From positions 16-64,015 of the forward strand of contig CALXRW010000005.1 in NCBI GenBank assembly GCA_944390965.1: a stretch of 64,000 nucleotides of DNA, in the 5' to 3' direction. The stretch is from an uncultured Clostridia bacterium. Lineage in GTDB: Bacteria > Bacillota > Clostridia > TANB77 > CAG-508. The notes beneath the pieces are model-generated. The model was not told where the DNA came from and ran no database searches. It saw only the letters and a program-made list of their open reading frames with translations. Position numbers and translations under genes: made by a program. Shown piece after piece: positions 588 through 63,697 of the stretch (its first letter is position 1; each line of letters opens with the position of its first letter).

Positions 588-3041
588 TTAATTATTTGTT
601 ATTGGCAATACTATGATTTCATCTTTTTTTGCACTTATTTTTGCTTTAGAGCCTGCTTTTAATTTGCCGTCTAGAATTGCTTCTGCTAGTTTGTCTTCTA
701 TTTGATTTTGAATTGCTCTTCTTAGAGGTCTTGCCCCATAAGTAGTATCTGTTCCTTTTTTTGCAATTAATTCTTTTGCAGAGTCTTCTACTTGAATGGT
801 AATGTTTTGTTCTTTTAATCTATTTATTACTTCTTTTAGCATAATATCAATAATTTGTTTGATTTCTGTTTCTGTTAATTTATGAAATACAATAATTTCA
901 TCAATACGGTTAATAAATTCTGGTCTAAATTGTTTTTTTAATTCCGCCATTACTTCTTTTTTTATTTCTTCATATTCTTTTTCTTCTTTTGTGTCATTGG
1001 TTGTGAATCCCAATTGTTTATTTTCTGCAATTAGTCTTGCTCCTACATTAGATGTCATGATAATAACTGTGTTTTTAAAGTTTACAGTTCTACCTTGGCT
1101 ATCGGTTAATCTACCATCTTCTAGAATTTGTAATAGCATATTCATAACATCTGGATGTGCTTTTTCTACTTCATCAAAAAGAATAACAGAATATGGTTTT
1201 CTTCTTATTTTTTCTGTTAGCTGTCCACCATCATCAAATCCTACATATCCTGGAGGTGAACCAATTAATTTAGATACAGAATGACTTTCCATATATTCAG
1301 ACATATCTACTCGTATCATGGCATCTTCATTTCCAAATAAACTTTCTGAAATTGCTTTTGCCAACTCTGTTTTGCCAACACCTGTTGGACCTAAAAATAA
1401 GAATGAACCTATTGGACGTTTTGGGTCTTTTAAGCCTACTCTACCTCTTTTAATCGCTTTGCTAACTGCTTCTACTGCTTCATTTTGTCCTACTACTCTT
1501 TTATGTAGGTTTTCTTCTAAGTTTTTTAATTTTTCTGTTTCTGTTTGATTTATTTTTTGTACTGGAATTCCTGTCCAACTACTAATAACTTCTGCAATAT
1601 CTTCCTCTGTAATATTAACAACATTTTTTGTGTTTTTGTTTTTCCATTTTGCTTTCTCTTTTTCTAATTTTTCTTTTTCTTTTTGTTCTTTATCTCTTAG
1701 TTCTGCTGCCTTTTCAAATTCTTGTACTTTAATAGCTTCTTCTTTTTCTTTTGCTGTTGTTTTAATTGTTTCTTCTAGTTTTTTGATTTCTTCTGGTTCT
1801 GTATAAGTTTTAAGTCTAACTCTAGAAGAAGTTTCGTCAATTAAATCTATAGCTTTATCTGGCAAAAACCTATCATTAATATATCTTACTGCTAAATTTG
1901 TTGCCGCTTCTATTGCTTCATCTGAAATTTTTACATTATGATGTGCTTCGTATTTATCTCGAATGCCTTTTAAAATTTGAATGGTATCTTCTACACTTGG
2001 CTCATCTACAGTAATAGGTTGGAATCTTCTTTCTAATGCTGCATCTTTTTCAATGTATTTTCTATATTCATTTAAGGTAGTAGCACCAATTAATTGAATA
2101 TCTCCTCTTGCAAGTAATGGTTTTAAGATATTAGCAGCATCAATAGCACCCTCTGCAGAACCTGCTCCAACAATTGTATGAATTTCATCTATAAATAAAA
2201 TGACGTCTCCTGCTTTTTTTACCTCATTTAAGGATTTTTTTATTCTTTCCTCAAAGTCTCCTCTATATTTAGCTCCAGCTACCATAGAAGTAATATCTAG
2301 TGTTACTACTCTTTTATTTTTTAATATTTCTGGTACATCTCCTGCTACAATTTTTTCAGCTAATCCTTCTACAGCCGCTGTTTTTCCAACACCTGGTTCT
2401 CCTATTAAACATGGATTATTTTTGGTTCTTCTTGATAAAATTTGAATTACTCTTTCTATTTCCTTTTTTCTTCCAATAACAGGGTCTAGCTTTCCTTCTT
2501 TTGCAGCTTTTGTTAAATCATTTCCAAATTGATTTAAGGTTGGCGTAGAATTAAAGCTTCCACCTGCCTTTCCTTTTTCATTTTTATTTTCCATTTCAGC
2601 TGTGTCATATTCATTTACTACTTTTATAATCTCATTGTATAATTTCTGTGGATTTACATTTAAGTCTAGCATTATTCTAACAGCTACACTATCACCTTCT
2701 CTCATAATTCCAATTAATAAATGTTCTGTTCCTATATATTCTGAGCCTAGTCTTCTTGCTTCTACAAAAGCGTTCTCAATAACTCGTTTTGTTCTAGGTG
2801 TAAAACCAATTGCTGAATTTTCTTTTGGCTCTTCTACACCAATTAGTTCTTCTATTTTCTCCTCTACTGCTTCTGGTGTTACATTTTGATTTTCCAAGAC
2901 TTTGCTTGCTAGGCCAGTTCCTTCTTTTACAATTCCATATAATAAATGTTCTGTTCCCACATAGTTATGGCCTAATTCTGCAGCAATTTCATTGGCAATT
3001 TGAATAGCATTTTCGCTTGCATTTGTAAATTTATATGTCAT
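588..3041 (-). CDS. clpC: ATP-dependent Clp protease ATP-binding subunit ClpC
   Basis: Two N-terminal Clp repeats (YVGTEHLL / YIGTEHLL), two Walker A sites ([16 protein letters not shown]), a central UVR-like coiled coil, and last position in the ctsR operon. Start set at ATG 3041 behind AAGGAG. Confidence 0.95.
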
Positions 3042-3057
3042 AAGAATCAACTCCTTT

Positions 3058-4077: not shown

Positions 4078-4612
4078 TTTCTTTTCCTCCTTTTTTCTCT
4101 AACTTTTTAATTTCATCTCTTATTTTGGCTGCTTCTTCATATTTTTCCTCTTGAATTGCTTTTTTTAATTGTGACTGTAACTGTTCTAGTTTATTTTCTT
4201 CAGGATGTATTTCTGTTTTTTCTAGCTTTATTTTGCTTGTTTTTTCTTTTCTTTTTCCTGTATATCGATTTGCACCTTGTAGCCTTTTTAAAATAGGGTC
4301 AATTCTATTTGAAAAGGTCTCATAACAATTTGCACATCCAAATTTTCCAATTTTCGTAAATTCATCATATGTCATACCACAGGTATCACATTTTTCTTGT
4401 TTTGGTAATGCTAAACTTGGCATAAAATTTAGTTCTGGTTCAAAGAAGTCTTCAAAGAAATTAGAAAAACTAAGTGGCATATTAAATTGCATATTTCCTA
4501 TTCCTAATTCTTGACTACATTTTTCACATAAATTCATTTCCTTCTTTTGTCCATTAATAATTTGTGTATATTTTACATTGGCTTCTCTTTCATGACAATG
4601 ATCACATAACAT
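4070..4612 (-). CDS. mcsA: McsA, activator of McsB (zinc-ribbon/UVR protein)
   Basis: CDHC..CEKC and CDTC..CANC zinc-ribbon pairs plus a C-terminal UVR motif (EEKYEEAAKIRDEIKKLE). ATG at 4612 preferred to TTG at 4639. Confidence 0.88.
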   Translation of the reverse strand: MLCDHCHEREANVKYTQIINGQKKEMNLCEKCSQELGIGNMQFNMPLSFSNFFEDFFEPELNFMPSLALPKQEKCDTCGMTYDEFTKIGKFGCANCYETFSNRIDPILKRLQGANRYTGKRKEKTSKIKLEKTEIHPEENKLEQLQSQLKKAIQEEKYEEAAKIRDEIKKLEKKGGKENA

Positions 4613-4631
4613 AAAAATCACATTCCTTTCT

Positions 4632-5084
4632 TTAATCAATTAAATTTAATAACATATTTTTGAAAATATTTGCTCTAATTTTATCTTTTATATCTGTATT
4701 TATCATTAGTACATTATCACTTGTTGCTACTTTTAATAGTTTTGCTTCTTTTTCGGAAATCATATTATAAGATAAAAAGTTATTAATAAAAATATCTACT
4801 TCATTTGCAGATATGCTATCTCCTAAAGTAGTAATAATATGCATAAAGTAGTTACTTTTGGTAATATTAATTTTTTTAATCTTAATACTCCCTCCTCCAC
4901 CTCTTTTACTTTCTACATAATATCCTTGTTTTGGTGTAAATCTTGTAGAAATGACATAATTAATTTGAGATGGTACACAGCCAAAGTGTTCTGCTAAGTC
5001 ATTTCTTTGAATTTCTATAAGATTGGCATCTTGTTCATCGAATAGCTCTTTGATAAAATCTTCTATTATATCTGCAATTCTCAT
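4632..5084 (-). CDS. ctsR: Class III stress-gene repressor CtsR
   Basis: First gene of the mcsA-mcsB-clpC operon. Has the VPSQINYVISTRF helix and the glycine loop KRGGGGSI typical of CtsR. Its own operator lies upstream. Confidence 0.9.
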   Translation of the reverse strand: MRIADIIEDFIKELFDEQDANLIEIQRNDLAEHFGCVPSQINYVISTRFTPKQGYYVESKRGGGGSIKIKKINITKSNYFMHIITTLGDSISANEVDIFINNFLSYNMISEKEAKLLKVATSDNVLMINTDIKDKIRANIFKNMLLNLID

Positions 5085-9239: not shown

Positions 9240-9698
9240 TTATTTTTTTATGTGGAAAATATTTTTTATTTTATTTATAATTCTTGCAAATATTGATTTT
9301 TTATATGGTATCATTGCAGTTTCATTTGCTATTTGTTCTTCTACATTTTTTGTTTCTTGTTTTTGCTTTTTGAAAATATTATCTGGGTTATATCTTTCTC
9401 TAAGTTCTAATTGATATTTTTCTTCATTGTTTTTTAAAATGTTATTTATTTCCGCAACTTCATTTTCATCTTCACACCAGTAATTTAAATATAATAATAC
9501 AATGATAGCCATGGTTTCTTTTCTTATATTTTGTTCATTTAAAGGCAAATCTTCTGTATATTGTGGATTATAATTGATTGCTCTTTTTTCCTTTAACATA
9601 TTCATTAATGTAGCTGGCAATTTTTCTGTATATTCAGTTCCTAATAAATTTAATATCTGATATACTTCTGAATAAATTTCTTTGGTTTCTACTTTCAT
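9240..9698 (-). CDS. Hypothetical protein (152 aa)
   Basis: Translationally coupled (ATGA overlap at 9695-9698) to the upstream 471-aa ORF. No catalytic motif recognised. Confidence 0.6.
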   Translation of the reverse strand: MKVETKEIYSEVYQILNLLGTEYTEKLPATLMNMLKEKRAINYNPQYTEDLPLNEQNIRKETMAIIVLLYLNYWCEDENEVAEINNILKNNEEKYQLELRERYNPDNIFKKQKQETKNVEEQIANETAMIPYKKSIFARIINKIKNIFHIKK

Positions 9699-11110
9699 AT
9701 CTCATTTCCTTTTTCATTTTCATTTTTATTTTGTTCTTCCAGTCGTCCTTCTTCTAATGTTCTTCTTGCATCATGTAAATCTGATGATTTTATTTCTTTA
9801 CATAAACTCGATAATAACCTTCTCTTACTTTTAGGTAATTCAGATTTTATAGGATTATTAGGTATATTGGTTAAAATTCTTCTCTGGCTTTTTCGTGATT
9901 TTTCTTCTTCATTTACATTGTGTGATGGTTCATTGGTATTTGTTCGAATTCTCCTTGAGCTCTTTATTGTTGGTTCAGCAAATTCTTTTGTCTTAGGTAT
10001 TCTAATTTTAGGTCTACTTGTTAGTTCTATTTTTTCATTTGGTGTCACACTATCGTCAATGTTTTCCAAAATTTTTCTTGTTGTTGTATTTTCTCTTCTT
10101 ATTGGTTGTTCTTTATAACGTTTAGCTAATGTTATTGCATTATCAACCATATATGATTTCCAGCCTTCTTGTTCCATTTGTTCTTTCATTCTATGTAATT
10201 GTTCCATATTCCTACTTGAAATTAACTCATTAAAATTTTTAGATATATCATCCATATTTGCAGAAAGTTCCTTAAAGAGTTTTTCTTTTTCTTTTGGCGG
10301 TAAATCTGAATAATGTTGTTCATTTTTTATAAAACTCTGGCTTCCATCTTGTTCTTCACAATAATATCCTAAAATAAATTGTGGTGGTATTTTCCTTAAT
10401 TTTGAGCAAATCCTATCAAAAATACAATGTTCTTCATATTGTTGTCCAGCTGTTCTTCTATTTTTCTCTGGAAATCCTAGAAAAATCTTTTCTCCTTCTT
10501 CATTTTGTATATATGAAGGAACAGCAATGATAACATTTGCTTTTGTTCCTTCTCCAAATTTATATCCAACAATTTCTTGTCTTATTTTTTCTGAATCTTC
10601 ATTTACTCCTAGAGAAATTGCTGTGCTTAGAATTGTTTTACTATTATTATTTAAGTCTAATCCTTGGCTATTTATACTTTCTGCTATACTTTGTTTTTCT
10701 TCTCTATTACCTTTATCTATTCCATGAATTCCTATGCCATATTCCCCTTGTTCAAGTTTACCAAGAGTATCTTCTAAATTTGATTGTTTCGTTTTCGATT
10801 TCTGCTCTTTATCTAGCTCTTGATAAATAATTTCAATGTCTTTATTGCTTTGAAATCTATGTAATGTCTCAATTCCAATTTCAATTAAATGTGCTTTTTC
10901 TGTCATAATCGATCTGACATTTGTTAGTCCTAAAGCATATGCAGCTGAATGGTCTATATAAAATTTTCCATCTCTTCTATATACTCGTAGTTTTCTCTTT
11001 GTTCTCATTATTAGTTTAGTTGGTTCTCCTAATTGCCCTTCTTGATTTCTAGCTTTTAAAAGTAATTTCATCTTTTCTCTTGTTTTTTCATTACTTTTGT
11101 ATTGTAGCAT
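9695..11110 (-). CDS. Hypothetical protein (471 aa) with a basic low-complexity C-terminus
   Basis: Long ORF with coding-like composition. The central region (GIGIHGIDKGN ... VIIAVPSYIQ) is unrecognised and the tail is Lys/Arg/Glu-rich. Confidence 0.6.
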   Translation of the reverse strand: MLQYKSNEKTREKMKLLLKARNQEGQLGEPTKLIMRTKRKLRVYRRDGKFYIDHSAAYALGLTNVRSIMTEKAHLIEIGIETLHRFQSNKDIEIIYQELDKEQKSKTKQSNLEDTLGKLEQGEYGIGIHGIDKGNREEKQSIAESINSQGLDLNNNSKTILSTAISLGVNEDSEKIRQEIVGYKFGEGTKANVIIAVPSYIQNEEGEKIFLGFPEKNRRTAGQQYEEHCIFDRICSKLRKIPPQFILGYYCEEQDGSQSFIKNEQHYSDLPPKEKEKLFKELSANMDDISKNFNELISSRNMEQLHRMKEQMEQEGWKSYMVDNAITLAKRYKEQPIRRENTTTRKILENIDDSVTPNEKIELTSRPKIRIPKTKEFAEPTIKSSRRIRTNTNEPSHNVNEEEKSRKSQRRILTNIPNNPIKSELPKSKRRLLSSLCKEIKSSDLHDARRTLEEGRLEEQNKNENEKGNEI

Positions 11111-11560: not shown

Positions 11561-11768
11561 ATGTAATCCATCCAATGCAATATTATTAGATTAAGTGAAA
11601 TACTTTTTTATTTTAATTTCAACCATATATACCTATATTTTGAAGCAAAAGCTCGAACAGCCTGCTGCTTACGGATTACTCCTTGAACCTTGAGAGTTTT
11701 GCGAATAAAATATAGGTATATATGGTTGATTTTCTTAATTTAAATAATATTGCACGGATGGATTACAT
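11561..11768. repeat. Palindromic MITE-like element, copy A (family 3)
   Basis: Termini ATGTAATCCATCCAATGCAATATTATT / AATAATATTGCACGGATGGATTACAT, inner stem AACCATATATACCTATAT / ATATAGGTATATATGGTT, and a roughly 78-nt core shared with 21685-21796. Confidence 0.8.
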
Positions 11769-11806
11769 ACAATTTTTTATTTTCAAATGATAAGTCTCAT
11801 TTTTTC

Positions 11807-11980: not shown

Positions 11981-12358
11981 TTATGCCTTTTTCTTTTTCA
12001 AAATATACTCTTTTACAAAATAATATATTTCATGAATGGCAATAAATCCTAAGAAAATCCCAAAATATTTTTTTAAATTTTCAGATGAAATTACTGTAGA
12101 AATCTTAGCACCAATAATTGCTCCTATCACTCCAAAAAGAATAATAATTTTTGCTGTTTTCCAATCTATATTTTTATTTTTTGCATTTACAATAATAGCA
12201 CTAATAGAAGTAGGAATAAAGAAAATTAGATTAGTGGCTTGTGCAATATGTTGTTCAATTCCTAGAAATACAGAAAGAACTAAAATTAGAATGGTTCCTC
12301 CTCCCATTCCTGTTCCACTTACAATTCCAGATACAAAACCTACAAAAGTTTCAAACAT
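11981..12358 (-). CDS. Half-size TSUP (TauE/SafE) family transporter subunit
   Basis: 4 TM helices and a glycine motif GTGMGGGTIL. Its own GAGGGA RBS lies after the stop of the upstream half. Confidence 0.75.
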   Translation of the reverse strand: MFETFVGFVSGIVSGTGMGGGTILILVLSVFLGIEQHIAQATNLIFFIPTSISAIIVNAKNKNIDWKTAKIIILFGVIGAIIGAKISTVISSENLKKYFGIFLGFIAIHEIYYFVKEYILKKKKA

Positions 12359-12368
12359 TTTTTCCCTC

Positions 12369-12713
12369 TTAAAAAATCATCCTTATAGATGCATATATTA
12401 GAAATATTGTAAAAGCAATTTTTAAAATTTTAGGAGACAATTTATTCAAAAGTTTTGAGCCTACATATCCTCCAACTACACCACCAATAGCACATAATAT
12501 TCCTATTTTCCAATCAATAAAATCATTTCTGAAATAAATAATACCACTTACCAGCACCATTGGCATGATACATAATACAGAAGTCGCTCTTGCTTTCACA
12601 TCTGTCATTTTTAGTAAGTACATAAAAGCAGGAACTAGTATAAGTCCTCCACCTGATGTGAAAAATCCACTAATAATTCCTGCTAATATTCCAATTCCTG
12701 CTTTTTTCCACAT
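12369..12713 (-). CDS. Half-size TSUP (TauE/SafE) family transporter subunit
   Basis: 4 TM helices and motif FFTSGGGLILVP. Paralogous to the adjacent half-size gene. Confidence 0.75.
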   Translation of the reverse strand: MWKKAGIGILAGIISGFFTSGGGLILVPAFMYLLKMTDVKARATSVLCIMPMVLVSGIIYFRNDFIDWKIGILCAIGGVVGGYVGSKLLNKLSPKILKIAFTIFLIYASIRMIF

Positions 12714-17722: not shown

Positions 17723-18625
17723 TTATAAAAGATTGTCTAGTTGTTCTAAAACTTTTTCAAAATATTCTGGTAATGGTGCTGTTAATGTTATTTTTTCTTG
17801 TGTAATAGGATGTTGAAATATTAGTTGTTTTGCATGTAGCATTTGTCCTTCTACTCCGAATTCATTTTTCCCATTAGAATATACCATATCTCCTACAACA
17901 GGATGTCCTATTTCTGCCATATGCACTCTTATTTGATGTGTTCTCCCAGTTTCAATTTTTACTTCTACTAGAGTATATTTCCCATATCTCTTTAAAACTT
18001 TAAAGTGAGTAATGGCTTCTTTTCCTTTTTTCGTTACCGCCATTTTTTTTCTGTCTTTTGTACTTCTTCCTATTGGCATTTGAATTGTTGCTTCGTTTTC
18101 TTGAATATTTCCTCTTACAAGTGCAATATAGGTTTTCTTCATTTCTTTCTTTTTTAATTGTTCACTTAATCCAATATGCGCTTTATCATTTTTTGCTACA
18201 ACAATTAGCCCTGATGTGTCTTTATCTAGTCTATGCACAATCCCTGGTCTTATTTTACCTCCTATACCAGATAGGCTTCCTTTACATTTTGCCATGACTG
18301 CATTTACTAGTGTATGATCTGGGTTACCATTTCCTGGGTGTACTACCAATCCTTTTGACTTGTTAATAACAATAATATCATTGTCTTCATAAATAATGTC
18401 TAATGGAATTTCTTGTGGTTTTAGTTCTATTTCTTCTGGTTCCTCTTCTTCTATTAAAATTTTGTCTCCTATTTTTACAATATAAGAATTTTTTTCTATT
18501 TTTCCATTTACTTTTACTTTTCCTTCTTCTATTAATTTTTGTAGTCTAGTTCTAGAGATTTCTGTTTCTTGTTTTTTGATGGCTTTATCTAATCTTTCTC
18601 CTCCTGTTTTTATGATAAATTCCAT
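17723..18625 (-). CDS. rluD: RluA/RluD-family 23S rRNA pseudouridine synthase
   Basis: S4 domain, catalytic HRLDKDTSGL, and GRTHQIRVH. Confidence 0.9.
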   Translation of the reverse strand: MEFIIKTGGERLDKAIKKQETEISRTRLQKLIEEGKVKVNGKIEKNSYIVKIGDKILIEEEEPEEIELKPQEIPLDIIYEDNDIIVINKSKGLVVHPGNGNPDHTLVNAVMAKCKGSLSGIGGKIRPGIVHRLDKDTSGLIVVAKNDKAHIGLSEQLKKKEMKKTYIALVRGNIQENEATIQMPIGRSTKDRKKMAVTKKGKEAITHFKVLKRYGKYTLVEVKIETGRTHQIRVHMAEIGHPVVGDMVYSNGKNEFGVEGQMLHAKQLIFQHPITQEKITLTAPLPEYFEKVLEQLDNLL

Positions 18626-18644
18626 TTATTTTCCTCCTAGTATC

Positions 18645-18685
18645 GTAATTTCTTTGAAGAACGTGCGATTAAAATCGCCCCTACA
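18645..18685 (-). repeat. REP-like element copy R3 (stem partly degenerate)
   Basis: GTAATTTCTTTGAAGAACGTGCGATTAAAATCGCCCCTACA, ending 19 nt upstream of the rluD start. Confidence 0.8.
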
Positions 18686-18717
18686 TTTTTATAATGGAGA
18701 TTTTTTTATGCAACATA

Positions 18718-19485
18718 TTATTCAGCTTTTATTGGCTCAAATTTTCCTTTGGTTTTATCTTTTTTAAAAAATAATTTTATTACATATACTGGCAAAACAC
18801 TCATTCTAATAATTCTTTTAGGTTCTCTTGCTAATCGCCATAACCATTCCATTCCCATTTTTTGTATCGCTTTTGGTGCTCTTTTTATTCTTCCTGCTTC
18901 ATAGTCAAATGTACCACCTTGCCCTGTTGCCACATCCACTTTTAATTCTTTTCTATGCTGATATATCCATTTTTCTTGTTTAGGAGCTCCCATTGCCACA
19001 AATACAATATTGGGTTGTAATTGATTGATTTCTTCTATTACTTCTCTTTCCTTTTCTCCTTCTATGTATCCATCATGAGTTCCAACGATTTTTAAATTTG
19101 GAAAAGATTTTAAAACATTTTCTTTTGTTTTTTCTGGAATTCCTGGCATTCCTCCCAATAAATAGACTGTGAAGCCTTCTTTTTCTGCTACTCTTAGTAC
19201 TTCCCTAAAATAGGCCTGTCCAGGTATTCTTTGTTTGAATTTCTTTTTTTGCATTTTTGCTCCTAACATGATTCCTACACTATCGGGAGTAGATAAGTCA
19301 GACTGTTGTAAAATATCAAAGAATTCCTTATCTTTATTGGCTTTCATAACAAATTCTGTATTGGGTGCAAATATCATTTTACATGTTTTATGACTTTCTA
19401 GTATAAGTTTTTTAGTAATTTCTCCTGATTCCTCTAATGTAATATTATCTATTGGTACACCTAAAATGGTAATTTGTTCTCTCAA
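18718..19485 (-). CDS. WecB/TagA/CpsF-family glycosyltransferase (GT26)
   Basis: Motifs ILGVPIDN, FAPNTEF, FVAMGAPKQEKWI, and GMEWLWRL. Confidence 0.85.
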   Translation of the reverse strand: MREQITILGVPIDNITLEESGEITKKLILESHKTCKMIFAPNTEFVMKANKDKEFFDILQQSDLSTPDSVGIMLGAKMQKKKFKQRIPGQAYFREVLRVAEKEGFTVYLLGGMPGIPEKTKENVLKSFPNLKIVGTHDGYIEGEKEREVIEEINQLQPNIVFVAMGAPKQEKWIYQHRKELKVDVATGQGGTFDYEAGRIKRAPKAIQKMGMEWLWRLAREPKRIIRMSVLPVYVIKLFFKKDKTKGKFEPIKAE

Positions 19486-21631: not shown

Positions 21632-21684
21632 GGCTTGTCTCCTCTTATAAACTATGTCTCTTTTGAAAATAAAAACTCTTATAT

Positions 21685-21796
21685 ATCCATCCCATGAACT
21701 TATATTTTGAAATAAAAGCTCGAACAGCCTTCTGCTTCCGGATTACCCCTTGAACCTTGAGAGTTTTATTGAAAAATATAAGTTCATGGGATGGAT
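21685..21796. repeat. Palindromic MITE-like element, copy B (family 3)
   Basis: Termini ATCCATCCCATGAACTTATAT / ATATAAGTTCATGGGATGGAT enclose a core about 90% identical to 11636-11712. Confidence 0.8.
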
Positions 21797-21854
21797 AAAA
21801 TCTTTTTTCTTTCCATTTTATATTAAAATTTCTTATTCTTTCCTATTATATATA

Positions 21855-21892
21855 AAAAATCCAAAAAAGTATAGCTTTTTTGGATTTTTTTA
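21855..21892. terminator. Bidirectional terminator downstream of the OB-fold gene
   Basis: Stem AATCCAAAAAAG / CTTTTTTGGATT with flanking A- and T-runs. Confidence 0.7.
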
Positions 21893-26106: not shown

Positions 26107-26149
26107 TTTTCTGCCTTTCTATTGATTATGTAATATGATTTATTTATGT

Positions 26150-26176
26150 GGGTCGGCGATGGCGCCGACCCCTACA
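26150..26176 (-). repeat. REP-like element copy R4 (stem-swapped variant)
   Basis: GGGTCGGCG-ATGG-CGCCGACCC-CTACA. Shares the right flank CTACATCTAAAAT with copy R6. A degenerate second GC hairpin lies at about 26212-26235. Confidence 0.75.
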
Positions 26177-26260
26177 TCTAAAATGATTTATTTTTGTCGA
26201 TATAACATTTTGGTTCGGCCAAGGCCGCCCTGATGCTGTTAAATAAATTTTATTCTATTA

Positions 26261-39090: not shown

Positions 39091-39135
39091 TTTCTTTTAA
39101 TTACATCTATACATTAAATAATGGGTATAATTTTT

Positions 39136-39207
39136 AAGTAATTTCTTCGAAGAACGGGCGATTAAAATTACCCCTACATTTTTTCATAGATTACTTTACA
39201 CTATCTT
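39136..39207 (-). repeat. REP-like element copy R5 (long form, stem degenerate)
   Basis: AAGTAATTTCTTCGAAGAACGGGCGATTAAAATTACCCCTACATTTTTTCATAGATTACTTTACACTATCTTTT. Confidence 0.85.
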
Positions 39208-40953: not shown

Positions 40954-41069
40954 TTATTGCATAGGAAAAATCGTCAGATTTTTCCGGAGCAACAAGGTTA
41001 AGTTACCTATGTTTTCGTGCGATTGCGAAGCAATCTGTACATGTGGCGAAGCCACTTTTCTTATTATAC
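40954..41069 (+). repeat. Family-2 intergenic repeat, copy C1
   Basis: Hairpins GGAAAAATC/GATTTTTCC, GATTGC-GAA-GCAATC and GTGGC-GAA-GCCAC, then TTTTC. About 98% identical to the reverse complement of 63935-64000. Confidence 0.8.
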
Positions 41070-48766: not shown

Positions 48767-51058
48767 ATGGTATGTTCTGTATGTAATAAAAATACAGCTG
48801 TCATTTTTATAAATAAAATAGAAAATGGTAAACAAGTTACAGAAGGACTTTGTTATAATTGTGCCAAGGAAAGAGGATTGAACCCACTGGAAATATTGGC
48901 AAAGCAAGCCAATCTTTCTGAAGAGAATTTGCAAGATATGGCAAAACAGTTCGAAGACATCTTCCAAGATGTTACAAATAATGTTGATATGGAAAATTTA
49001 GAAAATAATCCCAATGGTGAGCAAAACATTCCTATCGGAGCTATTATAACAAATATGTTTTCTTCTGATAAAAATAAATCTGATAAGTCAGAAAAATCTA
49101 ATGATCCTAATAAGAAAAAAACAAAAGTAGAAAAAAAGCCAAAGGAAGAAAAGAAAAGGTTTATTGACACATATGGAACGAATTTAACACAGAAAGCTAG
49201 AAATCACGAACTAGATACTGTTGTTGGAAGAGACAAAGAAATTCAAAGAGTCATACAAATTTTAAATAGACGTTCTAAAAATAATCCTTGCTTAATTGGT
49301 GAACCTGGGGTTGGGAAAACAGCTATTGCGCAAGGATTGGCCATTAAAATTGCTAACCAGCAAGTACCTCCTAAGTTGTTAAATAAGGAAGTATATTTAT
49401 TAGATATGACTTCTGTTGTTGCTGGGACACAGTTTAGAGGCCAATTTGAAGGTCGTATGAAAGCCATTATAGATGAGTGCAGGAATAGTAAAAATATTAT
49501 TTTAGTTATTGATGAAATTCACAATATTATTGGTGCTGGTGATGCTGAAAATGCAATGAATGCTGCTAATATTTTAAAGCCATCTTTAGCCAATGGCGAA
49601 GTACAAGTAATTGGTACAACTACACTAAAAGAATATCGCAAACATATTGAAAAAGATTCTGCTTTGGAAAGAAGATTTCAGCCAGTTTTGGTGGAAGAGC
49701 CAACTGTTGATGATACGATTTCTATTTTAAGAGGAATTAAAAAATATTATGAAGAATATCATAAAGTTCGTATTTCTGATGATGTTATTACACAAACAGT
49801 AAAAATGTCTGAGAGATATATTCATGACAGATTTTTACCAGATAAAGCAATTGACATTTTAGATGAAGCATGTTCTAAAATTAATTTAAATAATAAGGAA
49901 TTATATGAATTAGAACTTCTACGAAATGAGCTTAAAAAAATACAAGATGAAAAAGAGGAAGCCGTTTCTTCTGATTCTATAGAAGATTATCAAAAAGCTG
50001 CAGATTTAAAGACTAAAGAATGTAATTTACTAGAAAAAATAGATGAATTAAATCAAAAATTTCAATATACTAATTTAACCATACAAGATATTGCTAGAGT
50101 AATTGAAAGTTGGACTAAAATTCCTGTTACTAAAGTAACGGAAGAGGAAACTCATAAGTTATTAACTTTAGAGGAAAATTTACACCATCGAATTATTGGA
50201 CAAGATGAAGCTGTAAAAGCTGTAAGTAGAGCCATTCGTAGAAATCGTGCTGGATTACAAACATCCAAAAGACCACCTTCTTTTATTTTCGTTGGTCCTA
50301 CCGGTGTTGGTAAAACAGAACTTGCTAAATCTTTGGCCATAGAAATGTTTGGAAGTGAAGATTCCATTATTCGTATTGATATGTCCGAGTATATGGAAAG
50401 TCATTCTACCTCTAAATTAATAGGTTCGCCTCCTGGTTATGTAGGATATGATGATAGTGGATGGCTTACAGATAAAGTAAAAAGGAAACCATATTCTATT
50501 ATCTTATTAGATGAAATTGAAAAAGCTCATCCAGATGTATTTAACTTGCTTCTTCAAATTTTAGATGATGGAAGATTGACAGACAGCCAAGGAAATACTG
50601 TTAATTTTGAAAATACAATTATCATTATGACATCTAACGCTGGTTCTAATTTAAATAATAATTCTATTGGATTTGGAAAACAGACTCTAGATAAGAATAA
50701 AATTGAAGAAAATTTAAAAAGTATTTTTAGACCAGAATTTTTAAACAGAGTAGATGAAATTGTAGTATTTGACAGTCTTACTAAAGAACAATTATTACAA
50801 ATTGTAGATTTATTATTAGAAAATACAAAATCTGCATTAAGTAATAAAAATATTGATTTTTCAATATCAGAACAAGCAAAACATTATTTATTAGATAAAG
50901 GAACAGACTTAAAATATGGTGCAAGACCTTTAAGAAGAGCTATTCAACGTTATGTAGAAGATGAGCTAGCTGAAATGATTTTAAGATGTGAATTGTTAGA
51001 TGGTGACAAAATTTTTGTAGATGTTGCAGATGATAAATTAATATTTCAAAGAAATTAA
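48767..51058 (+). CDS. clpE: ClpE-type AAA+ Clp ATPase (N-terminal zinc ribbon, no Clp_N repeats)
   Basis: CSVC...CYNC zinc ribbon, two Walker A sites ([16 protein letters not shown]) and a middle UVR-like coil. Confidence 0.88.
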   Translation: MVCSVCNKNTAVIFINKIENGKQVTEGLCYNCAKERGLNPLEILAKQANLSEENLQDMAKQFEDIFQDVTNNVDMENLENNPNGEQNIPIGAIITNMFSSDKNKSDKSEKSNDPNKKKTKVEKKPKEEKKRFIDTYGTNLTQKARNHELDTVVGRDKEIQRVIQILNRRSKNNPCLIGEPGVGKTAIAQGLAIKIANQQVPPKLLNKEVYLLDMTSVVAGTQFRGQFEGRMKAIIDECRNSKNIILVIDEIHNIIGAGDAENAMNAANILKPSLANGEVQVIGTTTLKEYRKHIEKDSALERRFQPVLVEEPTVDDTISILRGIKKYYEEYHKVRISDDVITQTVKMSERYIHDRFLPDKAIDILDEACSKINLNNKELYELELLRNELKKIQDEKEEAVSSDSIEDYQKAADLKTKECNLLEKIDELNQKFQYTNLTIQDIARVIESWTKIPVTKVTEEETHKLLTLEENLHHRIIGQDEAVKAVSRAIRRNRAGLQTSKRPPSFIFVGPTGVGKTELAKSLAIEMFGSEDSIIRIDMSEYMESHSTSKLIGSPPGYVGYDDSGWLTDKVKRKPYSIILLDEIEKAHPDVFNLLLQILDDGRLTDSQGNTVNFENTIIIMTSNAGSNLNNNSIGFGKQTLDKNKIEENLKSIFRPEFLNRVDEIVVFDSLTKEQLLQIVDLLLENTKSALSNKNIDFSISEQAKHYLLDKGTDLKYGARPLRRAIQRYVEDELAEMILRCELLDGDKIFVDVADDKLIFQRN

Positions 51059-51657: not shown

Positions 51658-51699
51658 GATGCTTTTTTTAGGGATTGTCAAAGACTATCTTATACAATT

Positions 51700-51944
51700 T
51701 TAAACAGTTCCTTTGAAGAACGGGCGATTAAAATCGCCCCTACATCTAAAATTATTCATTATTCACTATTCATTTTTCATTATTCATTAATAGATATAAG
51801 AATTATCTTTCTCGAGCGTTTTCTTTGAAGCTGGGTCGCCGAGGGCGGCGACCCCTACATGCAAATTATTCATTAATTCAATTTACAACATCACTGATTA
51901 TATTTAATGAATAGTGAATAATTTATAATGAATGATGAATAATT
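51700..51944 (-). repeat. Composite repeat block: two REP-like hairpins (R6 canonical 51722-51744, R7 stem-swapped 51833-51859) interleaved with ATTCATT-type palindrome modules
   Basis: Collinear with 1-235, except that R7 and its flank are inserted inside the AT-rich module, after ATTCATTAAT. Confidence 0.85.
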
Positions 51945-54983: not shown

Positions 54984-55011
54984 TTTGTTGATTCCTCACT
55001 TTTTTTGCTTT

Positions 55012-55085
55012 AAGTAATTTCTGAGAAGAACGGGCGATTAAAATCGCCCCTACATTTTTCACAAATTACCTTACACTATCTTTTA
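55012..55085 (-). repeat. REP-like element copy R8 (long form)
   Basis: AAGTAATTTCTGAGAAGAACGGGCGATTAAAATCGCCCCTACATTTTTCACAAATTACCTTACACTATCTTTT. Its left end lies 28 nt upstream of the comEC start. Confidence 0.85.
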
Positions 55086-58394: not shown

Positions 58395-58583
58395 TTTTTT
58401 GTTTCACCTCCACACATTTTATTTAAAGAATAAATCTAATTTCTCTAAACCTTTTTAATATTTACTATATTAAATTAAGGTCTAGCAAAAAGCATATGAG
58501 ATTTGTTGACGCAAAAAATTGTGAAACAATTTTTCTATGCATCTATTTTTCAAATTACATGAAATGCAGTTTTCTATAACTTG

Positions 58584-58692
58584 AAAAACTCTGTACATAC
58601 CACCAAGGCATATACAGAGTTTGCATTTACTCTTTCTTAACACCTCGGTAGGACTTACTTAAATATTTGCCTACTGTCTTTGGCTATTTAGT
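58584..58692 (-). promoter_or_regulatory. Probable L10 (rplJL) leader with attenuator
   Basis: Minus strand has AAGACAGTAGG...CCTACCGAGGTG, then the hairpin AAACTCTGTATAT/ATGTACAGAGTTT + TTTTT. This resembles Firmicute L10 leaders that act by attenuation. Confidence 0.45.
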
Positions 58693-58695
58693 TTT

Positions 58696-58790
58696 TTATT
58701 GTATAGGAAATTTCCAGAACAATAAGATTAAGTTACCTATGTTTTCACTCGATTGTGTTGCAATCTGTACATGCGATGAAGTCACTTTTT
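58696..58790 (+). repeat. Family-2 intergenic repeat, copy C2 (diverged)
   Basis: TTATTGTATAGGAAATTTCC...GATTAAGTTACCTATGTTTTCACTCGATTGTGTTGCAATCTGTACATGCGATGAAGTCACTTTTT aligns with C1 at about 80% identity. Confidence 0.7.
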
Positions 58791-63597: not shown

Positions 63598-63626
63598 TTT
63601 ACTACCTCTTCTTATAATATTGTTTT

Positions 63627-63697
63627 AAGTAATTTCTTCGAAGAACGGGCGATTAAAATCGCCCCTACATTTTTTCATAAATTACTTTACACTATCT
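63627..63697 (-). repeat. REP-like element copy R9 (long form)
   Basis: AAGTAATTTCTTCGAAGAACGGGCGATTAAAATCGCCCCTACATTTTTTCATAAATTACTTTACACTATCT. Its left end lies 29 nt upstream of the J-domain gene start. Confidence 0.85.

Follow-up and report, generated by a model that had tools for sequence, protein, structure and literature searches.

REPINs are short extragenic hairpin repeats in which compensatory changes are common; they go with a single-copy RAYT and are inherited vertically within one lineage (PMC3116915, PMC3337134). Both of their ends are highly conserved (invariant 16-mers that overlap the REPs), the spacer being less conserved (PMC3116915). Here, a family of palindromic repeats is described from an uncultured Clostridia bacterium, two copies of which occur in a stretch of 64,000 nt (contig CALXRW010000005.1 of assembly GCA_944390965.1), hereafter the window. 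In an earlier note, these two copies, designated A (delimited there as 11561-11768) and B (21685-21796), had been read as resembling miniature inverted-repeat transposable elements (MITEs). In classical MITEs, conservation is concentrated in the terminal inverted repeats, to which the transposase binds, and target duplications are as a rule of one fixed length. Insertion sequences (IS) of the IS200/IS605 group have separate subterminal hairpins at their two ends (LE and RE), and their insertion point lies 3' of a fixed 4-5-nt target; where the active strand has to serve as lagging-strand template, a strand-specific orientation is reportedly to be expected.

The data presented below favour, with a probability of roughly 0.62, the view that the copies are lineage-restricted, non-autonomous, non-coding selfish mobile hairpin repeats of a MITE- or REPIN-like kind. 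The family has a high copy number and is divided into subfamilies, has inserted after a species split, nests within itself, sits strictly between genes and near their 3' ends, and has a fixed orientation, while its old copies decay. It is previously undescribed, and none of the known families with which it was compared matches it in full.

As in REPINs, the copies are short, non-coding extragenic hairpins occurring in tens to hundreds, most of them with no transposase inside or beside them, the family is inherited vertically in one lineage, and the hairpin displays paired changes, with double changes at seven stem pairs and at least eight perfect arm variants. The build is nevertheless reversed, the centre being invariant and the arms variable; the arms, read by eye, do not display the GTAG head that is the criterion for a REP, and no RAYT was found in the window or in the sequence of related loci. 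With classical MITEs such as Correia (CREE), RUP and ERIC, the family shares a size of 110-260 bp, a non-coding, inverted-repeat, multi-copy and intergenic character, insertion polymorphism and one case of target duplication. It differs in that every layer is an inverted repeat and yet the outermost is the least conserved, the conserved part being central, and in that target duplications are uneven. We know of no parent IS with the same ends, and neither the window nor 290 kb of related loci yielded one. The likeness to the single-stranded DNA transposons of the IS200/IS605 type and to their non-autonomous derivatives (PATEs) lies in the recognition of hairpins, the lack of a clear logic of terminal inverted repeats and target-site duplications, and a strand-specific orientation (11:1 in the present family). 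The copies, however, form one large nested hairpin with varying junctions and, a possible ATAGGAAA motif aside, lack a fixed target, and no TnpA or TnpB was found for them. An invariant single-stranded motif carried on a freely covarying stem is also what HUH origins and nick sites (rolling-circle Rep, relaxases, IS91) present, and the CTTGA that occurs twice in the apex recalls the CTTG-type sites that pC194-family Reps and IS91 nick or target, a resemblance used as a lead only; here, dozens of chromosomal copies occur and not one origin, and the family has no linked Rep, relaxase or Y2 transposase. Integron attC sites were rejected, as the arms do not fit the R''/R' core sites (RYYYAAC/GTTRRRY) and the copies are scattered among housekeeping genes.

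The two copies of the window

Both palindromes are present at the positions given in the earlier note, which had also correctly placed copy A between convergent genes and copy B between two minus-strand genes. In the window, the 54-nt apical block that they share (AAAAGCTCGAACAGCCT.CTGCTT.CGGATTAC.CCTTGAACCTTGAGAGTTTT) has these two occurrences and no other (11647-11700 and 21714-21767), and shuffled sequences contain none. A core identity of ca. 90% had been proposed, which holds for this apex (51 of 54 positions match) but not for the 84 nt that include the basal stems, where 68 positions are identical (81%). Similarly, the apex had been singled out as the best-conserved part: one 28-nt half (11673-11700 and 21740-21767) is nearly invariant, whereas the other half varies.

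The self-complementary arms described for copy A (AACCATATATACC/GGTATATATGGTT) were found, and its 208 nt (11561-11768), folded as a single strand, reach a folding energy of -47.3 kcal/mol (z = -11.65), the corresponding value for the copy B region being z = -7.39. The repeats taken for the termini (ATCCATCC.ATG/CA.GGATGGAT) do exist in both copies but correspond to one middle layer, a B1-type arm, of a multi-layer hairpin and not to the ends of the element. Both copies had indeed been delimited too short. For copy B, comparison with relatives devoid of the element, here the empty site of a sister species, gives ca. 21653-21836 in place of 21685-21796, and composite copy A extends beyond 11768 to ca. 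11796.

A dispersed family in three close species

A scan for a 22-nt pattern, with one genome per species, returned 25 matches in the metagenome-assembled genome (MAG) "uncultured Clostridia bacterium" BRZ_GA bin106 and one in a second MAG, and a gapped pattern retrieved 11 further real copies from metagenome contigs, nearly all in one ENA assembly of chicken gut. Three other metagenome matches (L028, L029 and L034) were discarded as chance matches in unrelated G+C-rich DNA. A total of 38 copies was retrieved for analysis. These elements are non-coding, multi-copy and 110-260 bp long, and the family is limited to three close species. The possibility that only the two copies of the window exist can therefore be set aside, dozens having been recovered, and the MITE-like reading was borne out by these dozens of copies, by the empty site in the sister species and by one element found inserted in another between 10-bp direct repeats (see below).

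DNA of the window was found in ca. 20 chicken-gut metagenome runs. In four DNA metagenome runs the k-mer depth of the core is ca. 55-110 times that of its flanks, and the family amounts to roughly 55-110 copies per genome in this uncultured chicken-gut Clostridia lineage. Assembly contigs end at 11636/11706 in copy A and at 21714/21755 in copy B. One contig (L026, from ERZ779866) is a chimera joined via the repeat core: its left part (ca. 1-1455) is 99.9% identical to the flank of copy B in the window and its right part (1352-2473) corresponds to L007, an unrelated locus. The lineage marked by the family is abundant and uncultured, and its genome carries several hairpin-repeat families that break short-read assemblies.

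The element does not correspond to any RNA family in Rfam, ribozymes, group II intron domains and omega or bridge RNAs included. With the whole window searched at gathering thresholds and both copies at E < 10, no Rfam family matched it, and the sole hits were sub-threshold plant miRNA hairpins (41.8 bits against a gathering threshold of 80, and 37.5 against 100), which are explained by the AT-rich palindrome. BLAST searches with the core against plasmids and phages, together with a scan of viral contigs, gave no relevant match. The window itself has a G+C content of 29% and contains housekeeping Firmicute genes including ctsR-mcsB-clpC, spo0A, nusG-rplKAJL and comEC.

Architecture of the copies

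Alignment of the copies reveals two subfamilies, A and B, which have the core in common and whose arms are unrelated and self-mirroring. The double change in the basal helix (GCAAAA/TTTTGC in copy A and ATAAAA/TTTTAT in copy B) recurs as exactly two states, 17 and 17 among 34 copies. It had been regarded as compensatory and is real in the sequence, but it separates the subfamilies and is thus no evidence for an RNA structure.

The outermost layer of type A is a palindrome that varies between copies (often ..CAGACAGAGGGACGGCAATGTCATTAAGTTAAG); further in come an asymmetric bulge, which is conserved, then the inner arm CAACCATATATACC and finally the core. In copy A, the outer arms are TATTATTAGATTAAG (11581-11595, plus strand) and its partner CTTAATTTAAATAATA (11734-11749, plus strand), between which falls a historical inversion described below. 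The left bulge (11596-11619, plus strand) has 24 nt against 5 nt on the right; it is kept in type A copies and inverts along with the core in the inverted haplotype. The inner arm CAACCATATATACC (11620-11633, plus strand) is the perfect complement of GGTATATATGGTTG (11715-11728, plus strand). The core unit TATATTTT...AAAATATA (11634-11714, minus strand) consists of two basal stems and the 54-nt apex (11647-11700); its strand, hereafter S, is the gene-sense strand as inferred from the orientation statistics given below. On S, the nearly invariant 28-nt block AAAACTCTCAAGGTTCAAGGAGTAATCC (11673-11700, minus strand) contains a GGR-GTAA-TCC mini-hairpin; three CTYGAR direct repeats also occur in the block. 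The invariant half of the apex reads GGATTACYCCTTGAACCTTGAGAGTTTT (AAAACTCTCAAGGTTCAAGGRGTAATCC on the other strand), alternative blocks occurring in the opposite half, and its near-invariance extends to the metagenome copies, whose selection ignored that half.

Type B comprises an outer module (TTTTCTTTTGAAAATAAAAA..), the arm ATCCnnnnnATGAAC and the core, often with an additional module of ca. 45 nt on the far side that carries a small hairpin (GAAACTTTGAAGTTTC). The insert forming copy B (21653-21836, minus strand, ca. 180-183 bp) has B1 arms ATCCATCCCATGAAC (21685-21699, plus strand) and GTTCATGGGATGGAT (21782-21796, plus strand) around a core unit (21700-21781, minus strand) with its apex at 21714-21767 and the invariant block at 21740-21767. 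The B arms exist in the eight or more different sequences mentioned above, almost all of them perfect palindromes, and sub-lineages of A are recognised by diagnostic blocks common to unlinked loci, such as GCGTAAGC replacing GCTCGAAC.

Read from the sequence, copy A is an A unit nested within a B shell of opposite orientation, because the type A unit is enclosed by a B1 arm, ATCCATCCAATGCAA (11566-11580, plus strand; homologous to ATCCATCCCATGAAC of copy B) with TTGCACGGATGGAT (11750-11763, plus strand), and by a B-type outer module, GACTTATCATTTGAAAATAAAAAATTGTATGTA (11764-11796, minus strand; family consensus GATTTTTCTTTTGAAAATAAAAATTCATATAT), the latter read by eye.

Arms are kept alike in place. 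In the orthologous pair L010 and L030, a change is mirrored on both sides (CGGC/GCCG versus CAGC/GCTG), as expected of correction in a DNA hairpin or of selection for pairing. Mismatches in 505 arm positions (7 A:C, 5 G:T and 5 others) display no strand bias, and both strands of the element fold with equal energy; the stems thus behave as palindromes at the DNA level. Transmission of half-elements with foldback copying was considered as the origin of the mirrored arms and rejected, since the bulges between layers are conserved and not mirrored.

A further palindromic family was observed at L013 (ca. 4560-4660) and L016 (ca. 330-440), with the form GACAGAGGGA[AC]..GAGCTTTTGTCTTAAC..loop..GTTAAGACAAAAGCTC..TCCCTCTGTC, at times followed by a T-run; its GACAGAGGGAC ends are the outermost layer in many type A copies.

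Insertion, nesting and decay

Copy B was inserted after the split from the sister species. The spacer separating the SSB-domain gene from the next gene is 94 nt in the sister species (L058 and L059) and 277 nt in the window, with collinear flanks and with a sister orthologue of the 542-aa protein that is 87% identical. Filled and empty sites share the terminator followed by ATATATAATAGGAAA, and ATAAGAGGAGACAAGCCATG ahead of the start codon; the surplus of the window is ca. 183 bases, corresponding to ca. 21653-21836. A more distant relative (L060/L061) is empty at both the copy A and the copy B loci. No empty site was found in the contigs of eight metagenome runs, both loci being fixed within the species of the window. 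The insertion point of copy B lies ca. 25 nt past the T-run of the SSB-gene terminator and directly after the ATAGGAAA motif, and its junctions carry a short direct repeat, ATA or ATAAGA. Several registers were tried for a fixed target duplication at this copy and none was convincing.

Insertion into an older copy was observed at L004 and its orthologue L036, where a type A unit (AATGTCATTAAC...GTTAATGACATT) lies within the apex of an older, diverged core and is bounded by GATTCCTTCT and GATTACTTCT, a 10-bp direct repeat matching at 9 of 10 positions. Elsewhere, 101-nt cores are identical at unlinked loci (L005, L017 and L020 on the one hand, L002 and L014 on the other). In old copies (L035 and the core disrupted in L004), the arms no longer pair and the invariant block has been altered. 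Strains also differ within the core, L046 having a 7-nt deletion and L040 a 13-nt duplication. Decay of old copies and such strain indels indicate that the invariant block is kept because intact copies alone spread, and not because each copy is needed.

Genomic context and orientation

None of the 38 copies overlaps an open reading frame (ORF). Both neighbouring genes are known for 27 independent loci; in 13 of these the genes are convergent, in 12 co-directional and in 2 divergent, as compared with 22, 156 and 22, respectively, for the background intergenic regions of the same DNA, so that convergent sites are enriched (chi-square p = 5e-9). Orientation is informative in co-directional pairs only. 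There, the strand as first written is antisense to the genes in 11 of 12 cases (p = 0.006), and S, which carries the GGR-GTAA-TCC hairpin, is accordingly the gene-sense strand. The suggestion that the minus strand of the window copies matters is in line with this 11:1 ratio.

B copies often begin right past a locus-specific intrinsic terminator of the upstream gene, with the ATAGGAAA motif at the junction, as read by eye; a crude scan along the S strand placed a terminator-like site immediately upstream of the element in 8 of the 17 B copies and downstream of it in 2 of 17. The ATAGGAAA motif is not enriched in the window at large and is probably part of the insertion target, because it is already present in the empty site. 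Type A copies directly adjoin the stop codons on either side, no further terminator being present, and at the position of copy A the outgroup has a plain terminator hairpin. That the element is itself an intrinsic terminator, defined by a short G+C-rich stem, a loop of 3-8 nt and a U-tract, was rejected, the scan finding none in either copy and only the neighbouring terminator of the SSB-domain gene (21854-21890, minus strand), which lies outside the element and is kept at the empty site too. A promoter-like TTGAAC-17-TAAAAT was also discarded, as it occurs at chance level and in type A only.

Possible mobilisation and competing explanations

An invariant tip on stems for which only pairing counts, combined with a fixed orientation, suggests that a trans-acting enzyme may read a single-stranded hairpin. 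The element would move as, or be recognised in, such a hairpin, with the gene-sense S strand as the lagging-strand template, and the enzyme, probably encoded by a single-copy gene, would recognise the invariant apex held on a stem whose pairing, not sequence, matters. Known substrates of HUH-type Reps, relaxases and Y1 transposases follow this logic. Correction from arm to arm within the hairpin, by mismatch repair or template switching, might keep the stems perfect, and new copies would settle in spacers that are close to terminators and rich in hairpins, the tips of older copies among them, which would give rise to the nested layers. If host transcripts are affected at all (in termination, 3'-end or leader structure), this would be a by-product.

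Several points weigh against the family being a set of mobile selfish repeats of this kind. No transposase, recombinase, reverse transcriptase or RAYT was detected among all 69 ORFs of the window, nor any multi-copy gene, transposases included, among 447 ORFs in ca. 290 kb of related loci, so that the mobilising enzyme is hypothetical. Target duplications are uneven: the one nested case has 10 bp, copy B has no more than ATA or ATAAGA, and full-length type A copies display none. Local GC skew tracks the gene strand on the short contigs, which makes replication-linked and transcription-linked orientation inseparable. Public runs were read as contigs and hence carry neither excision or insertion reads nor RNA strand. 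Finally, the HUH or single-stranded DNA mechanism is put forward by analogy.

Among the alternatives, the one that survives best, although we consider it unlikely, is a cis-acting RNA module useful to the host, the S strand being transcribed within 3' untranslated regions (UTRs) or inter-cistronic leaders and transposition merely serving as the means of spread. It would there be a terminator or insulator, stabilise mRNA 3' ends, be bound by RNase III or another protein, or interact with the ribosome. The invariant block, AAAACUCUCAAGGUUCAAGGRGUAAUCC as RNA, with its GNRA-capped GGR/UCC stem and an extended Shine-Dalgarno-like AAGGAGUAAUCC, would suit such a role, as would the 11:1 sense orientation relative to co-directional genes, the enrichment at gene 3' ends, the position of type A between two convergent stop codons and, at the site of copy A, the plain hairpin terminator of the outgroup. 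However, old copies devoid of the invariant block and strain indels within the core point to a lack of constraint in situ, no U-tract follows the stems on either side, and, as said, the terminator scan finds none in the element. Weak S-strand signals do exist in the apex: the apical P2 stem has A-U changed to G.U in 10 copies and GGA/UUU in L035, both of which pair on the S strand only, and the core folds slightly better on this strand in 26 of 33 copies, which are not independent. Against these, the stems have no G.U strand bias and the alternative apex block TTACGC disrupts the CUC/GAG pairing. Metatranscriptome contigs extend from a flanking gene into the core, but core depth in these contigs, which carry no strand information, is 3-68 times that of the flanks and not above the DNA copy ratio. 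A similarity of the B-type plus strand to the 3' end of 16S rRNA is marginal (p ca. 0.01, obtained post hoc) and is weak for type A (p = 0.16).

A bolder proposal, which we put forward as speculative and rather improbable, is that the family is the substrate of an undescribed single-stranded DNA mobilisation system, which would resemble REPINs in lifestyle while reversing their architecture. In it, a single-copy enzyme of HUH type (or other) would recognise or nick the invariant 28-nt apex, held on a freely covarying hairpin that corrects itself, and insert the element in one orientation beside terminators and into older tips. Or else the apex would function as RNA, within a 3' UTR or a leader, by complementarity to the 16S rRNA 3' end. 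The build of the family, opposite to that of REPINs and classical MITEs, combines an invariant asymmetric tip with interchangeable self-mirroring stems, nesting and an 11:1 orientation. Were the mobilising enzyme found, the family could offer a clean natural system for hairpin-directed, terminator-proximal insertion and arm-to-arm correction; if there is no such enzyme, it would be ordinary selfish DNA.

It is very improbable that the copies are independently transcribed small RNA genes or self-cleaving ribozymes with the apex as the functional RNA. An apex conserved while the stems covary and the presence of core sequence in metatranscriptome contigs would fit such genes, but no Rfam family matches even at E < 10, the core has no conserved flanking promoter or terminator, RNA depth is proportional to DNA copy number, and copies decay. 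Just as little can be said for a dispersed DNA site that is carried on hairpins and bound by a host protein (for instance in nucleoid structure, replication, segregation or DNA uptake). The invariant 28-nt block with its three direct repeats and the competence gene comEC in the window would agree with this, yet uptake sequences would be expected in more than 60-100 copies, the family is confined to three close species, and insertion polymorphism together with decay suits selfish spread better.

Inversion within copy A

The inner part of copy A (ca. 11596-11733, asymmetric bulges included) is reversed against identical flanks in the bin106 orthologue L005 and also in contigs of two RNA runs. 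Twelve sequences are available at this locus, i.e. the window, L005 and ten contigs in which the 94-aa protein is identical. Two haplotypes can be told apart among them, 7 of the 12 being inverted, and the inverted haplotype always carries the same flank SNPs (single-nucleotide polymorphisms) and a 16-nt loss in one arm. The orthologous pair L004/L036 is likewise inverted, and three other pairs are not. Since orientation is perfectly linked to the flank SNPs and to the arm deletion, the inversion of copy A fits a single historical event, an occasional recombination between long inverted arms, and not a switch. An inverton, in which a recombinase would flip the segment between the outer inverted repeats of type A, with its TTGAAC-17 nt-TAAAAT, to switch neighbouring genes, would account for the two reversed loci and has a 9/12 promoter-like match at 11683-11711 on the plus strand, but it is the least credible explanation of all given that linkage, the lack of any sample with both forms (at the level of contigs), a promoter match at chance (5 found versus 5.2 expected in shuffled sequence) that is missing from type B, and the absence of a recombinase from the window.

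Neighbouring genes and other repeats of the window

Copy A is flanked by a plus-strand gene encoding 94 aa, whose stop codon lies 8 nt from the first arm, and by a minus-strand gene encoding 46 aa together with two TauE-like genes. The latter (11981-12358 and 12369-12713, minus strand) represent a TauE/SafE-type exporter in two half-size ORFs of 125 and 114 aa. The split is kept in all strains and in the outgroup, whose halves have 117 and 108 aa, indicating a natural two-gene arrangement and not a frameshift. On the other side, an ORF (9695-11110, minus strand) with no Pfam match varies in length across strain contigs (454, 470 or 471 aa), and ca. 525 bp of the window at this ORF (9608-10132) are unaligned in the sister-species locus L005.

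Copy B lies between two minus-strand genes, the SSB-domain gene with its own terminator (21854-21890) and the gene for the 542-aa protein. A perfect TATAAT, read by eye, occurs right after the SSB-gene terminator (21837-21853, and ca. 1520-1545 in L058). At the empty site it is located ca. 25 nt ahead of the ribosome-binding site of the next gene; if it is the promoter of that gene, copy B would sit within its 5' leader.

A second high-copy repeat with the core GAAGAACGGGCGATTAAAATCGCCCCTACA occurs at 14-88, 173-247, 18639-18713, 39132-39206, 51698-51772, 55008-55082 and 63623-63697. On the reverse strand it reads TGTAGGGG followed by a G+C-rich hairpin, which gives it a REP-like look, and k-mer depth in one region containing it (18329-18719) exceeds flank depth ca. 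25-fold in four metagenome runs. Its tail CCCCTACA recurs in a related repeat, the G+C-rich hairpin TGGGTCGGCGATGGCGCCGACCCCTACA, which was found at 26149-26182 and 51832-51865 as well as in L022 (ca. 100-140). Two ClpC/ClpB-type AAA+ paralogues (588-3050, minus strand, and 48767-51058, plus strand) are 55% identical, the second having no Clp_N domain. A ribosomal protein L10 leader (58573-58701, minus strand; Rfam RF00557, 51 bits against a gathering threshold of 44) precedes rplJ-rplL. Finally, a 79-nt repeat is present at 40981-41059 and 58711-58789 with 82% identity, one site being located between two DUF5684 genes and the other between rplA and the L10 leader.

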